From: Octopus vulgaris
Taxonomy: Eukaryota
Assembly: GCA_951406725.2 (NCBI GenBank)
Contig: OX597818.1
Coordinates: 28,954,001 to 29,018,000 of the forward strand
Direction of reading: 5' to 3'
DNA length: 64,000 nt
The position numbers were made by a program, and so were the translations under genes. The notes beneath the pieces are model-generated. The model made no database searches, was not told where the DNA came from, and was given only the letters and a program-made list of their open reading frames with translations. Below, in pieces: positions 3,994 through 43,665 of the stretch (the first letter of the stretch is position 1; each line of letters starts with the position of its first letter).

Positions 3994-4779
3994 ACATTTG
4001 TTTATTTGTATATATAAATGCCATTTCATTTGTTTTGGCTATGACAAAGATATCGTTGTGAGAACAGTTCAGAATATTTTCAGTCGATCAATCAATCGAG
4101 TGATAATACTGAAACATGAACACACACAAATACATATCAGAAACAGCTATAAGCCAATAGTAAATAAATAAATTTTTATAACCCAATACTTCTGTCTATT
4201 ATATATATATACATATATATTATAATATAGGGTAAAATCATTAATAATTTTACCAGGTGGGCAGCGTGGAAATACAAAATTACCTATAAAGTTTTTATTT
4301 CCATGCTGACCACCTGATTCTACCCTTTATTATAATTAATATTTGAAAAATTTACTCCTTGATCAAAACTGTATTAACTGCAGTCTAGATCTTGACACAC
4401 TACACATGGGTATAAAGGAAAGAAGTGAATTCTACTTTGCAGTATATTTCTACGAGTGTGGATGGATATTGGTTAGGTGATGTTGCAGCTCGCATGCATA
4501 ATTTGAGATACTCATAAATTTATGCTATGGAATACTGTCGCTAATGATAGTAATAGGTTATATTTTTTTACTTTAAGCTTGAAACAGGATCTTGTATGCG
4601 GTTAACCAAAAAGTTGTTGATTCATTATTATTCTTTTGCTCACCTACAATATAGAGTTTTATTCTCGGAGATTTTAAGCTGGTAATAGGGCATTTGGTGT
4701 CTATTTCTACAGCACGTGGTGAGGTGTAAAGCTAATCCCTTGTTACAACTATGTATATAATTATTATATATATATAGGT

Positions 4780-36310: not shown

Positions 36311-36719
36311 AGGCGCAGGAGTGGCTGTGTGGTAAGTAGCTTGTTTACCAACCACATGGTTCCGGGTTCAGTCCCACTGCGTGGCACCCTGGGCAAGTGT
36401 CTTCTACTATAGCCTCGGGCCGACCAAAGCCTTGTGAGTGGATTTGGTAGACGGGAACTGAAAGAAGCCCGTCGTATATATGTATATATATATATATGCG
36501 TGTGTGTGTTTGTTTGTCTGTGTTTGTACCCCTAGCATTGCTTGACAACCGATGCTGGTGTGTTTATGTCCCCGTTACTTAGCGGTTTGGCAAAAGAGAC
36601 CGATAGAATAAGTACTGGGCTTACAAAAGAATAAGTCCCGGGGTCGATTTGCTCGATTAAAGGTGGTGCTCCAGCATGGCCACAGTCAAATGACTGAAAC
36701 AAGTAAAAGAGTAAAAGAG
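36311..36719 (+). mobile_element. Full-length tRNA-derived SINE, family A (CORE-like)
   Basis: A box TGGCTGTGTGG, B box GGTTCAGTCCC, ctgggcaagtgtctt, internal (TA)/(TG) tract, CR1-like tail plus a repeated gtaaaaga. Confidence 0.9.
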
Positions 36720-36779
36720 TATAGTAATATAATTTTTGGAGAAATAACCGGTTTCATATTTTCTTTTCAAATTTCTAAA

Positions 36780-38330
36780 TGAAACCATTAAAAAATCACC
36801 AAAGACGTACATACATATACCAAACCCAGGGGACATAAAACTACAACCAATTGTAGCTGGCCCAGCCTGTGAATCACTCAGACTAAATCTATTTATAGTC
36901 ATCCTCCTTAAACACATCAATAGCCATACCAGAGGTGACTTGGATATGTTAAAATCACCTTCCAAAAAAAGTCAAGGAAGAAACAATCATGGTTTCATTT
37001 GATATAGTTAATTTATATACCAGTATACCTCATAATTATGGCCTAGAGGCAATTCAGTTCTGGCTCGATCAATTTCCGGAAGAAATACCAAAAAGGATCA
37101 GTAAAGAATTCATAACTAAATCGATTGAATTCATCCTACAAAATAACCACGTCATGATTGACAATGCATTTTACCATTAAAAATTCAGAATTGTTATGGG
37201 TACTAGGGCAGCACCAGTCATTGCGAACCTAACAATGGGCTACCTGGAGGTAATAATATGCCAGGAATCTTTATCTACCTTTGGAAACCCCTTTTCCCAA
37301 TACATAAAAGAAAATTGGAAAAGTTTCCTAGATGACTGTTTCATAATATAGAATGAAAACAAAGAAAAACTCCTAAAATTCAAAAGCCTATTGAACGGCG
37401 TCAACCCAAACATACAGTTCACAATGGAGTACAACCAAAAGGAGCTTCCATTCTTAGATATACTAATTAAAAAAATAAACCTAAAAACAGAAATGGACAT
37501 ATTTTACAAAACCACAGACGCCAGACAATATCTATTTTTTGATTCATGCCACCCAAGACACCAAAACAAACATCCCATTCAACCTTGCAAGAAGGATATG
37601 CACAATAGTGTCAGAACAAAATACCAGAAACTTTAAATGGCAAGAACTCAAAAACACCCTAATTGACAGACACTACCCAGTTCAACTCATAGAGGATGGA
37701 ATCAGACGTGCAACACAAATCGACATAGAAACGTTAAGAAAAGTTCAACACAGCAACACACCTTCACCGAAAATACTGCCGTACATTTCCACATACAACC
37801 CCAGAAACAAAGAAGCCTTCACCATCATCACCCAAAATTTACCAATGCTACATAAGGACCCTAAATTAAAGAAAATTTTACATATACATAAAATCATTAA
37901 AAGCTACAAACAACTGAAATCACTAAAAAAGATCCTCACAAAGGCAAAATTATTTTCTAAAATAACGGATGCAAAAGTGAAGAAATGTGGTAGACCAAAT
38001 TGCACAACATGCCCCAAACCTTCTAAAAGGATCAGAATTCCTCTTCAAGAGGGACAAAAATTCAAAATCAAATCTAATTTTACTTGTGCTTCAGAAAACC
38101 TGATTTATGCCATAAGATTCTTGGGCTGCCACCAAAACTACATAGGGTCCACGGGATTATCACTCAGATGCAGATGCACTCTGCATTGACAGCAGATTGC
38201 ATTCCCAGAATACAGAATGATACCCTTTAGTGAACATATTGAGTAATGTGCAAAGCAACTACTACCACAATTTATAATCTTTCCATTCTATCAATGTACC
38301 ATTGGAACTCCAACACAAGTTAGATTAAAT
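36780..38330 (+). mobile_element. Penelope-like retroelement relic (RT plus GIY-YIG)
   Basis: SFDIVNLYTSIP, MGT..APVIANL.MG.LE, FLDDCF, IQFTME..LPFLDI, YLFFDSCHP, CGRPNCTTC, NLIYAI...YIGSTG; several stops and frameshifts. Confidence 0.92.
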
Positions 38331-38542: not shown

Positions 38543-39065
38543 CTATGTATATTTCCTATTTAGTATTGGGGAGGTTTCCTTTATAAGGATGTACTCCCAT
38601 ATTTGTCTGAGTGTTGGGTCTTTTGGGTGCTTGGATAAGATGTGGATGTCAAGTTGACCCAAGTTGCCTCCGTGGTGGTCTTTGGCATGTTGGTAGAGTA
38701 TGGAGGACTGTTTTTTGTCATCATATTGTCTCAGATGTTCATTTAGTTGTTCCGCAATGCTCCTAGATGTCTCCCCTATGTACATCATGTTCATGTCTTT
38801 ACAAGCACCTTCTGCGCATCTTATGTTGTAAACTACATTTCAAGGTCTACAGTTAATACCAGGGTTAATCCTACTTACCATGCAGTTATCATTGGTGCAT
38901 ATGGTATTCTCAAAGGGGTACATCCTACATAGTTGTGATCTGACGGAGTTTCCTGACTTTTCAAACCCTGGCATTAACTGTAGACCTCGAAATGTAGTTT
39001 ACAGCAGAAGATGCATAGAAGGTGCTTGTAAAGACATGAACATGATGTACATAGGGGAGATATCT
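38543..39065 (-). mobile_element. Penelope-like GIY-YIG 3' fragment with inverted duplication
   Basis: NVVY...YIGETSRSIAEQLNEH...RQIWEYILI...PILN; 38965-39066 is the reverse complement of 38764-38863. Confidence 0.85.
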
Positions 39066-40596
39066 ATATTAAGTATGCAATATGTATAAATATTAAACTA
39101 TTTCTAATATAATTTCTTTTCCTCCCTCTATTGTGGTAAAAGTTTGATATATACTCAAAAGTATTCATAAATTTCTATCTTTTGTTACAATATTATTCTT
39201 AATAATCTTTTGAATAACTTTATCTGTATACAATATAGCAACATTGTTTTATAGTATTCAACTATAGTACTACATGATAAGACTTCCCCTTTTCATTATC
39301 AATGGTCTGCTAGTGGGTGACCCCTTAATTATCAGCTAACATCTTCTTTCAAGTTTTTTATATCTTTACTGGAAAAATATATGAGTCCAATTAATTAAAA
39401 TAAAAATACTTGAAATACATCATATACTTAATTTAAGCTAAATTACTATAATTTAATCTATATTCATTAATTAATTAAATTATATATTTATTTACTAATT
39501 AAATAAACATCTAATTTGATATGATTCTAACTATGTACTAAACCCTACACAAACATGTGTACACTTATAATATATCTTATATCAACAATGCTGCAGCCAC
39601 AACCCTGCAATTTTATTTTGTATATATTTCAAAAATATACTCACAAATAATTTAAACTTATTATATAAGTAAATTAATTTATGTCTAGAAGTAATATTTC
39701 GCTCATTGATAGAATAAACAAAGTACTTATTATTATTATTAAATTCAATAGTATATAAAGAAAAAAAGAAAAAAACTTTTCACTACCTATACTGTAATAT
39801 TTTACATTACAAACTATTTCACAAAACAACCACGAAAAATACTTTTAGATTTTAGTTCTCATATAATAATTATTATAATAAGAATAATTAAATAAATGAA
39901 AGTATTTTAAATTATAATTAAATAAATAAAATTAGAAATACATATTTTTTTAATCAATAATCATATGAATTTCACCATTATTTCTTAAATAAAATGTATA
40001 CTTATTTTTTCAAAGATATTTTATGAACTAAAAAATTTTAAATTAAAACATATAACTTAGTGTTTATATGTCCAGATATAATATTACGAATATTAAGGGA
40101 ATAACGAAAGTACTTATTATTATTATTATTCAATTCAATAGTACAAAAGAAATTAAAACTTTTCATTACCTATACTATAATATTTTACATTACAAACTAT
40201 TTCACAAAGCAACCACATTTAATGCTCCGATTAAATTTAAATTTAATTGTAATTTAAATTGAAGATATGGCCACAAAATATATGTAGTCTATTTACTATT
40301 TATATACTGTTTGTTTATTTATTATTATGTACTTTATTGTGTTCTTGGTAAATGTTTTATCATATATTTTATTTTTTCTATATGGTATGATTTACGTCTA
40401 TCATTGTTTGAATTACATAATAGTGGCTTTTCTCTAATTTATATATATATATATATTACGGTGATATACTTGCATAGTGAGTGACTGGATCTGAGTTCAT
40501 GTGATGGAATGAAAACAATTGCAGTGTGGAAGGTGTTTATAAACCATTTAAGAAACACACAAAAACCGTTAGATTCACTTCAACATTTAAATTTAA

Positions 40597-40647
40597 TTTG
40601 TCAAAATATTTTCGTCGCTTTGAGACTGCAACCTGTTCACTGACAAA
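40597..40647 (-). ncRNA. Minimal hammerhead ribozyme variant (G3-C8 core)
   Basis: Minus strand: tttgtca-GTGAACA-g-gttgc-agtctcaaa-gcgac-GAAA-atat-TT-tgacaaa. Confidence 0.65.
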
Positions 40648-40704
40648 ACTTTGTGCTTATAAACACCTTCCACACTGCAATTGTTTTTATATATATATAT
40701 AAAT

Positions 40705-43665
40705 TTCCCAGGCGAAGAATGTACCCCACAACATAGACTGGTAGTTAGTGACTTTAGGATCAAGACTAAGAGGACGACCACAAGACGACCAACATGGAGA
40801 AGAAGGATCTGGAAGCTTAAAAATCCAACAAATGGATAGAGATTTAGAGACATATTACTTGAAGCCTTTGACGAAATAGAAGGGGATATAGCTTCACATG
40901 GGGCAGAAGACAACTGGAGGTCTCTAAGGGACAACCTGCTGAGAGCCACTGACCAAATCTGTGGTTGGTGCAAAGTCCTCTCAAGACCCAAAATAACGTG
41001 GTGGTGGAACAATATAGTTGACAGGGCTATTAGACAAAAGAAACAGGCTTGGAAGGACTGGAAGAACGGTGGTAGCAGGGAAGTGTATCAGACTGCCAGA
41101 AGGGAAGCTAGAAGGCAGGTGTATTTAGCCAGAGGGGAAGCAGATAAGAAAAAATTTAACAATGTTCTGCACCATGAGGAAGAAAGACTTGAGGTATTTC
41201 GTGTTGCAAGACAGAATGTGAGAGAAAATCGTGATGTGGTAGGACAGAAATGTGTTCGCATGGATGATGGTTCACTTGCGCTAAATGAGGATGCAAAGAG
41301 AGAGGTTTGGAGACGCCACTATGAAAGGTTGCTGAATAAAGAAAATGAATGGGATAAAGAGAGTCTGCCGAATGTCGACCCAACAGAGGGGCAAGCTATC
41401 CGAGTTGACAGTTCCTTGGTAGTTAAGGCAATTAGAAGCATGAAGTGAGGGAAAGCCCCAGACCCATCATAATTTAATGCAGAGATGCTCAAAATATCTG
41501 GCAGTGTCGGCTATAGCCCAGTAACCCATATAGTTAGCCAGGTGATACACGAAGGAGTCATACCCAATGACTGGTGTAGCAGCATAATAGTCAACTGCTA
41601 AAAAGTTAAAGATGACGCCCTATATACAAATAACAACAGGGGTATCAAGCTATTGGATCAGGTAATGAAGGTTACGGAGAGAGTCATAGCCCAACTAATT
41701 AGAGAGAGAGTTAGTTTAGATGAGGTGCAGTTTGGGTTCGTGCTAGGGAAAAGTACTACTGATGCTATATTCCTGGTAAGACAGCTGCAGGAGAAATACC
41801 TAGCCAAAGACAAGCCCCTGTACCTGGCTTTTGTTGACATGGAGAAAGCCTTCGACAGGGTCCTCCCATCACTTATCTGGTGGTCAATGAGGAAACTAGG
41901 GATAGATGAATTGTTAGTGAGAGCTGTGCGAGCCATGTACAGGGATGCTACTAGTAAGGTGAGGGTTGGCAACGAGTACAGTGAAGAATTCTGGGTAGAG
42001 GTTGGGGTCCACAAAGGTTCAGTCCTCAGCCCCCTCCTATTTATCATAGTCCTCCAGGCAATAATGGAGGAATTCAAGACAGGATGCCCCTGGGAGCTCC
42101 TCTATGCTGATGACCTTGTTCTAATTGCTGAGTCACTATCAGAACTGGAGAAGTTTCAGGTGTGGAAGCAAGGATTAGAATCAAAGGGCCTTAGAGTCAA
42201 CCTAGCTAAACCGAAGTCCTAATAAGTAGGAAGGTAGACAAATCACAAACGCCTTCAGGCAGATGGCCCTGCTCGATCTGTAGAAAAGGCGTAGGTAGAA
42301 ACTCTATAAGATGCACCAAGTATAAGCTATGGACACATAAGAGGTGCAGCAATGTCAAAGGAAGGCTAACTAGGAAGATAGTTTTTGTATGTGGCAGATG
42401 CTCAAGAGTAAAAACACTGAAAATGTGCAGAGACCAACTTCCACCACATTCCAGGGAGAAAAACTAGAAATAGTTGATAGCTTCCGTTACCTAGGTGACC
42501 AAGTCAGTAGCGGGGGTGGGTGTGCTGAAAGTGTAACTGTTAGAGTAAGAATAGCCTGGGCAAAGTTCAGAGAGCTCTTACCCCTGCTGGTGACAAAGGG
42601 CTTCTCGCTCAGAGTAAAAGGCAGACTATACGATGCATGTGTACGAACAGCCATGCTACATGGTAGTGAAACATGGGCTGTGACTGCTGAGGATATGTGT
42701 AAGCTCGCAAGAAATGAAGCCAGTATGCTCCGATGGATGTGTAATGTCAGTGTTCATACTCGACAGAGTGTAAGTACCTTGAGAGAAAAGTTGGACCTAA
42801 GAAGCATCAGCTGTGGTTTGCAAGAGAGACGTATGCGCTGGTATGGTCATGTGACGAGAATGGCTGAAGATAGTTGTGTGAAAATGTGCCACATCCTAGC
42901 GGTTGAGGGAACCTGTGGAAGAGGTAGACCCAGGAAAACCTGGGACGAGGTAGTGAAGCACGACCACCAAACTTTATGTTTCACCGACGAAGTGACTAGA
43001 GACCGAGACCTATGGAAGTATGCTGTGCATGAGAAGACCTGGCAGGACAAGTGAGACCATAACCCATGGCCTCTATCTGGGATGTAGCCAGTCCACTTAT
43101 GCATACCTTTCCTTCTTGGGACACAAAACTCTACTTGTGAAGACCTGTTGAGGCAAGTGGAAATCAGAATCAAAATCGAAATCGATCAACATCAATGGAA
43201 ATTGTAGCTATGATGCCAGTGCCAGGGGCACGTAAGCAAACAATCCAAACGTGGCCGTTGCCAGTAGTGCCCCGGCGGGTCTCTGTGCCGGTGGAACGTA
43301 AAAAGCACCATCCGATCGTGGCTGTTGCCTGTATCGCCTGGCCCCCGTGCCGGTGGCACATAAATAGCACCATCCGATTGTGGCCGTTGCCAGCCTGGCC
43401 TGGCCCCTGTGCTGGTGGCACGTAAAAAGCACCATTGGATCGTGGCCATTGCCAATTTCTCGCCTGGTCCCCGTGCCGGTGGCACGTAAAAAGCACCCAC
43501 TACACTCACGGAGTGGTTGGCGTTAGGAAGGGCATCCAACTGTAGAAACATTGCCAGATCAGACTGGGCCTGGTGCAGCCTTCTGGCTTCCCAGACCCCA
43601 GTTGAACTCTCCAACCCATGCTAGCATGGAAAGCGAATGCTAAATGATGATGATGATGATGATGA
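40705..43665 (+). mobile_element. Best-preserved RTE LINE copy (5'-truncated, several stops and frameshifts)
   Basis: QFGFV.GKSTTDAIFLVRQLQEK, FVDMEKAFDRV, GVHKGSVLSPLLF, LLYADDL, PHD-like insert, FRYLG, MLHGSETW, 3' UTR array, (GAT)n tail. Confidence 0.95.
43215..43500 (+). repeat. Five tandem ~62-bp units in the RTE 3' UTR
   Basis: gtgccggtggcacgtaaaaagcaccatccgatcgtggccgttgcc plus a variable ~17-nt segment, repeated. Confidence 0.9.

Follow-up and report, generated by a model that had tools for sequence, protein, structure and literature searches.

The 64,000-nucleotide stretch of Octopus vulgaris DNA analysed here (the window: assembly GCA_951406725.2, contig OX597818.1, positions 28,954,001 to 29,018,000 of the forward strand) carries on its minus strand a hammerhead ribozyme motif whose core does not have the canonical C3 and G8 of CUGANGA: it has G3 and C8 instead. 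This core is the state of a whole high-copy repeat family. Taking all parts jointly, we think it probable that the stretch around the motif represents the end repeat (pLTR), truncated on its 5' side, of a Penelope-like element (PLE), joined to a short inverted copy, and that the motif, of minimal type I, would be a slow cutter that works as a dimer and is likely to be aided by a protein. PLEs with hammerheads have been described before, and among laboratory rescues the C3G/G8C swap is standard. The family-wide natural G3-C8 core is, as far as the literature searched tells, new as a variant; the PLE insertion that hosts it is otherwise ordinary.

The hammerhead motif in the window copy

Read on the minus strand, the motif has the topology of a type I minimal hammerhead. 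Stem I consists of 7 bp (5' arm 40641..40647, 3' arm 40597..40603). The core, GUGAACA (40634..40640), is numbered G3-U4-G5-A6-A7-C8-A9, with G3 at 40640 and C8 at 40635. It is followed by one extra G between A9 and G10.1 (40633), a position that is likewise G in two sister families, B and C. Stem II with its 9-nt loop occupies 40614..40632; its 5 bp (40632-40628/40618-40614) are closed by G10.1-C11.1 and include one U-G pair, which results from a C-to-U change in the window copy. The remainder (40604..40613) comprises G12-A13-A14 (40613-40611), the stem III sequence AAUAUU (40610-40605) and U17 (40604). Hammerhead numbering places the predicted cut between 40604 and 40603. The window copy keeps U4, G5, A6, A9, G12, A13, A14, A15.1-U16.1 and H17, and its G3 and C8 can form a Watson-Crick pair. 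Stems I and II, G10.1-C11.1 and the palindromic AAUAUU agree with a minimal type I PLE hammerhead.

A sequence-only reading of this DNA had described these minus-strand parts, and stem I, GUGAACA, the extra G, stem II and the predicted cut were all located as described. The palindrome assigned to stem III is also there, but the active fold uses the 6-mer given above, and the 8-mer originally proposed takes in A14 and U17. The same reading had suggested a natural G3-C8 hammerhead variant that consensus searches miss. This has held up: the core is kept across a repeat family, and searches against Rfam returned no hammerhead family, either for the whole window (E up to 5) or for 40450-40700 (E up to 10).

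The window contains a single hammerhead motif. A G3-C8 descriptor, drawn up after the motif had been seen, has this one match in the window and none in 200 dinucleotide-type shuffles. Together with the thousands of recurrences described below, this shows that the motif is not due to chance. It folds into stems I and II with unremarkable stability (z -1.29). In calculations without tertiary terms, a modelled double-hammerhead dimer reaches -19.6 kcal/mol, against -21.8 for two monomer hairpins and -24.4 for a swapped dimer.

The PLE hammerheads of Cervera and de la Pena 2014 (PMC4209133, in the portion available) resemble this motif in several respects. [quoted passage not shown] Their consensus gives the extra nucleotide as H, which is G here, where stem I is 7 bp. 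They differ in the core, which is C3-G8 or U3-A8 there and G3-C8 here. Supplement file 2 of that paper has nine places with GUGA, none of them a core. Natural core variants were also collected by Perreault et al. 2011 (PMC3088659), where, in the sections accessible, positions 3 and 8 likewise covary (U3-A8). Their filter, in contrast, disqualified any core change from C3...G8, and the same sections do not name G3-C8. Natural U3-A8 is thus already in print in both papers, as far as the available portions go. A natural G3-C8 core was not found in the literature searched, which left out Lunse et al. 2017 on PLE hammerhead variants; the accessible parts of a bioRxiv retrozyme paper (10.64898/2026.07.22.740005) and of PMC6155905 hold nothing further on the core.

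Core state in the family and its sisters

The copy count proposed along with the sequence-only reading was carried out on the genome (2.8 Gb in 227 contigs), counting exact matches in a fixed 20-nt context. GUGAACA proves to be the state of the family to which the window copy belongs (family A), with G3-C8 in 5,777 of 6,291 matches (92%). A further 339 matches have G3 with a base other than C at position 8, and 175 have a base other than G at position 3. C3-G8 does not occur among the first 100 of these 175, and a 31-nt pattern with the canonical core has no match in the genome. Because 5,777 of the 6,291 matches have G3-C8 and the canonical core was not found, G3-C8 is the master state of family A and not a product of decay in the window copy.

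The window copy itself differs from the majority of the fetched copies at 14 of 200 positions, two of which fall in stem II or its loop. In contigs from four public runs labelled as four organisms (the kinds of run are unrecorded), positions 3 and 8 show no change at a level of 5% or more. Two deep contigs of one of these runs (X20) differ at stem II positions. In a young subfamily, whose endonuclease copies are numerous and nearly identical, the core and both stems are kept and loop II is different.

One departure from the master state stands out. By hand count, G8 is present in 43 of the first 100 copies without C8. The matching change at position 3, G to C, occurs in nine of the first 100 copies without G3, far below this number. 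A G3-G8 sub-lineage is enriched on one contig (C16) and linked to ORF remnants (L099, L100, L101-L105). Because G8 is so frequent among the non-C8 copies and marks the ORF-linked copies on C16, this mismatch lineage has spread. Among the matches listed, most G8 copies have a loop variant in common with C8 copies on the same contig. This suggests that G8 was derived from C8; the family A branch in the tree leaves the direction open.

The two sister families are built on the same architecture and have other pairs at these positions. For family B there are 1,881 exact matches, and U3-A8 is present in 92 of the first 100. Family C (3,392 matches) has C3 in 98 and G8 in all of the first 100, and 95 of these also carry A9C (core CUGAUGC), a change expected to impair cutting. 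Family C (seen at L233:184-4119 (+) and L169:8310-8360) is young; two motifs enclose its intact 1,312-aa frames, of which there are many, and its stem III palindrome is imperfect. The closest protein match, P0001 from Octopus vulgaris, belongs to this family and has a 100% match in the genome. A tree built on the endonuclease region from 34 rows (21 selected among 110 genome fragments and 13 of 120 homologs) groups families A, B and C in a single clade (99/99), within which B and C are sisters (99/98). A minimal hammerhead with the canonical core CUGAYGA also occurs in a fourth repeat family (L066:7793 (+), L165:7273 (-) and L198:2167 (-)).

Across families A, B and C, two-sided changes are found at stem I pairs 2 and 3, stem II pairs 3 and 4, 15.2-16.2 and 3-8, while U4, G5, A6, G12-A14, A15.1-U16.1 and H17 are constant. 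The 3-8 pair thus covaries naturally, with a different Watson-Crick pair in each of the three families (three data points). Thousands of wild-type G3-C8 copies beside U3-A8 and C3-G8 sisters provide natural evidence for the tertiary 3-8 pair. They also show that CUGANGA descriptors and Rfam undercount such motifs. A 'cuganga' string search would miss the non-canonical core found here, in which this element differs from the PLEs of Craig et al. 2021 (PMC8557442).

The parent element

Most family A copies are short, and those that extend further at the 5' end cross a (TACA)n-rich region into sequences for a GIY-YIG endonuclease and a reverse transcriptase (RT). In the window, the copy is a 5'-truncated end repeat of 200 nt (40458..40657, minus strand). 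We interpret this stretch as the pLTR of a Penelope-like retrotransposon of roughly 4.3 kb encoding RT and GIY-YIG. The tie to a PLE made in the sequence-only reading is borne out by the longer copies, which run through the 3' UTR into the RT/GIY-YIG ORF.

The layout is best seen in the copy at L269, which reads hammerhead-AUG-ORF-3'UTR-hammerhead, with motifs at 4737 and 8998, 4,261 nt apart, and an ORF interrupted by at least one frame change. The copy at L100 also has a hammerhead in both pLTRs. Between the end of the ORF and the second hammerhead lie about 1 kb (0.94-1.43 kb). The N-terminus of the ORF is encoded within the 3' part of the repeat. The AUG that opens the ORF in full-length copies corresponds to 40545..40547 (minus strand), 56 nt after the predicted cut, and in the window copy this frame closes early. 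The segment at 40458..40511 (minus strand), a 'tail' present on one arm only of the inverted structure described below, also encodes the ORF N-terminus.

No fully intact family A ORF was seen among the copies examined. The copy at L163 has an open frame of 1,025 aa with DKSG, YVDD, a CX3CxxC linker and a C-terminal PF01541 domain. The RVT_1 profile does not match it, and matched three homologs only below its cut-off. A PDB sequence search with an RT fragment gave nothing significant (best E 0.18). CX3CxxC and CX4C are both present in the translations of L163 and L099. By the linker criteria in the available text of PMC8557442, the element would be of Neptune/Nematis type. It has the traits of PLEs with a C-terminal endonuclease (EN+): a single ORF with RT followed by GIY-YIG, pLTR direct repeats, an inverted 5'-truncated copy and a one-sided tail. 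In EN+ Neptune/Nematis elements the tail is 30-40 nt long according to the same text, compared with about 55 nt here.

Several other sources were considered and rejected. A SINE-like unit of 215 nt cannot account for all copies, as the longer ones lead to the ORF. The GIY-YIG fragment at 38546-38839 (minus strand) is not part of the parent ORF; it belongs to family B, other examples of which are found at L175-L202. A broken PLE-like ORF of another family at 36657-38230 (plus strand) lies on the other strand and is not the parent ORF either. A metazoan non-LTR retrozyme, made of head-to-tail non-coding units of a few hundred nt with a hammerhead in each, does not fit the single copy in the window or the fetched copies, which are mostly solo, inverted pairs or linked to an ORF.

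The Poseidon element of the lizard Anolis (PAc; Frangione et al. 2024, PMC11167929) is similar in that the same base swap was made in a PLE hammerhead lying at the pLTR-ORF junction, two 3' ends define a tail inside the ORF start, and targets are AT-rich. The differences concern the status of the swap and the position of the ORF. In PAc, C3G/G8C is a laboratory mutant that partly recovers the activity lost in the single mutants, while here it is the wild-type state of a high-copy family. The ORF of PAc, a member of the Poseidon clade, starts in stem II, while here the AUG is placed well after the cut and the linker is CX3CxxC.

5' ends, cutting and the inverted partner

The 5' ends were examined in 85 family A copies, selected with an anchor that lies downstream of the motif. 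One inverted two-arm insertion, multiplied passively inside another repeat, accounts for 39 of these rows. It is found at L033, L040-L042, L053-L056, L058-L060 and many of L274-L355, and the raw number of copies is inflated by it. A single copy of the 85 starts at the predicted cut site, with an ambiguous junction. The 46 copies outside the amplified insertion (including a few near-duplicates) mostly start inside the motif or slightly upstream of it: 10 start at 83-86 nt upstream of the anchor, one at 90, none at 91-112 and three further away. The cluster, about 15 nt upstream of stem I (10/46 within 4 nt), is possibly a transcription start in the pLTR. Families B and C likewise show no accumulation of 5' ends at the cut (1/30 each, by eye). 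Because only one of 85 copies starts at the cut and neither B nor C has a pile-up, uncut RNA seems to be the source of most integrated copies, as it is in the lizard element.

We propose that, in the active core, G3-C8 would serve as the tertiary Watson-Crick pair, 3-8 pairing being part of the active hammerhead fold in the accessible text of PMC3884650. Two copies would pair through AAUAUU to form stem III. Cleavage following U17 would either produce unit-length RNAs from tandem transcripts or leave a 5' end shortly before the AUG. We infer that cutting would be slow and would depend on a dimer and on protein because minimal PLE hammerheads cut weakly and as dimers (PMC4209133 and the review PMC6765202, in the parts available) and because the lizard element, whose single hammerhead mutants are dead, requires the PLE protein (PMC11167929). 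The consulted text of PMC3884650 states, with data not shown there, that a G3-C8 variant fares worse with C17; by analogy, U17 may suit G3. Cutting may be dispensable, given the scarcity of cut-site ends, the spread of G3-G8, A9C in family C and an active dimer that is not the lowest-energy fold.

A tentative extension is that this PLE clade runs a natural mutagenesis series of the core (G3-C8, U3-A8, C3-G8 with A9C, and the G3-G8 offshoot), every member of which has reached hundreds or thousands of copies. The cause would be that the ribozyme has the element's protein as a chaperone, or that the fold helps in translating the ORF, which lies 56-101 nt downstream. The role in translation is a lead taken by analogy from viral type I hammerheads, which occur in 5' UTRs (PMC13725137, in the portion available). 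These related, recently active families are in any case a ready panel on whether PLE hammerheads need to cut. If the series is real, the purpose of PLE hammerheads becomes directly testable and standard searches miss whole high-copy ribozyme families.

The most serious rival, possible but on balance doubtful, is that cleavage is negligible in this clade and that the fold is a relic or persists for a function other than catalysis (as a protein-binding site, a promoter or a translation element before the AUG). The scarcity of cut-site ends in all three families, the amplification of G3-G8 and the young, intact family C with its A9C would all fit. So would the lizard element, in which ribozyme mutants have no effect on insertion in vitro and no RNA ends were found at the cut (PMC11167929). 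Such a reading must, however, accommodate a different Watson-Crick pair at 3-8 in each of the three families, among which U4, G5, A6, G12-A14, A15.1-U16.1 and H17 do not vary, and this pair belongs to the active fold. In addition, cut-site ends are also missing in the U3-A8 family, so G3-C8 is not singled out.

It is very unlikely that the short copies are instead a non-autonomous unit of about 200 nt, free of terminal inverted repeats, transcribed from just upstream of the hammerhead and moved in trans by the PLE protein. This would be a milder version of the small PLE-related unit suggested in the sequence-only reading. The fairly sharp 5' boundary (the 10 of 46 starts noted above) is what a transcription start would give, but the copies do not differ in kind from the pLTR found in ORF-bearing copies and their inverted arms are variable. 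Internal initiation on the 5' pLTR of a full-length RNA, or ordinary truncation before the (TACA)n run, would yield the same short copies.

The inverted arms were also central to the sequence-only reading, which took a 31-bp inverted repeat to bracket a small mobile unit. The repeat exists and is perfect over 31 bp (40512-40542/40657-40687), ending one base short of the limit first given; its role as a bracket does not stand, since the arms vary from copy to copy and the element extends past the left arm, by 54 nt, and into the ORF. The right arm is part of an inverted, 5'-truncated second copy (40655..40687, plus strand), which abuts the 5' end of the main copy with a 3-nt overlap. The part of the main copy that it mirrors (40512..40542, minus strand) ends at the short 3' end of the family. 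Among 60 loci, an inverted partner of 26 to about 156 nt is present at the 5' end in 41 and absent in 19; at 12 of these loci a single insertion is carried along by another repeat, and two more are accounted for by the window copy and its duplicate, leaving 29 of 48 with a partner. Usually one arm stops at the short 3' end, the other has the tail of about 55 nt and the flanks are (TA)n. In their inverted partner, their one-sided tail and their (TA)n flanks, these copies agree with PLE insertions in the available part of PMC8557442, and PMC11167929 explains the tail by the presence of two start sites for RT within the beginning of the ORF.

We discount almost entirely that the insertion is MITE-like, with terminal inverted repeats of 31 bp, or that the motif resembles a hammerhead by chance: the perfect repeat in (TA)n, the lack of an Rfam match and the folding z of only -1.29 might suggest it, but terminal inverted repeats are not constant in length or presence, the element continues into the RT ORF, none of the shuffles fits and the families covary.

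Under the preferred reading, a truncated pLTR with an inverted partner, the element's endonuclease would have nicked a (TA)n run, of which the flanks at 40440..40456 and 40688..40701 are the likely remains as insertion target. Reverse transcription would have begun at the tail and stopped 10 nt past stem I; a further short cDNA, begun at the other start site, would have been joined to it in inverted orientation. The window copy is a dead insertion. It adjoins a broken LINE (40702-43200, plus strand; RVT_1 match at 41602-42219). The insertion and its flanks recur in inverted orientation 118 kb away, identical over the 271 nt queried (L002/L064, G000:C5:29112546-29112816), which is either a recent segmental duplication or an assembly duplicate.
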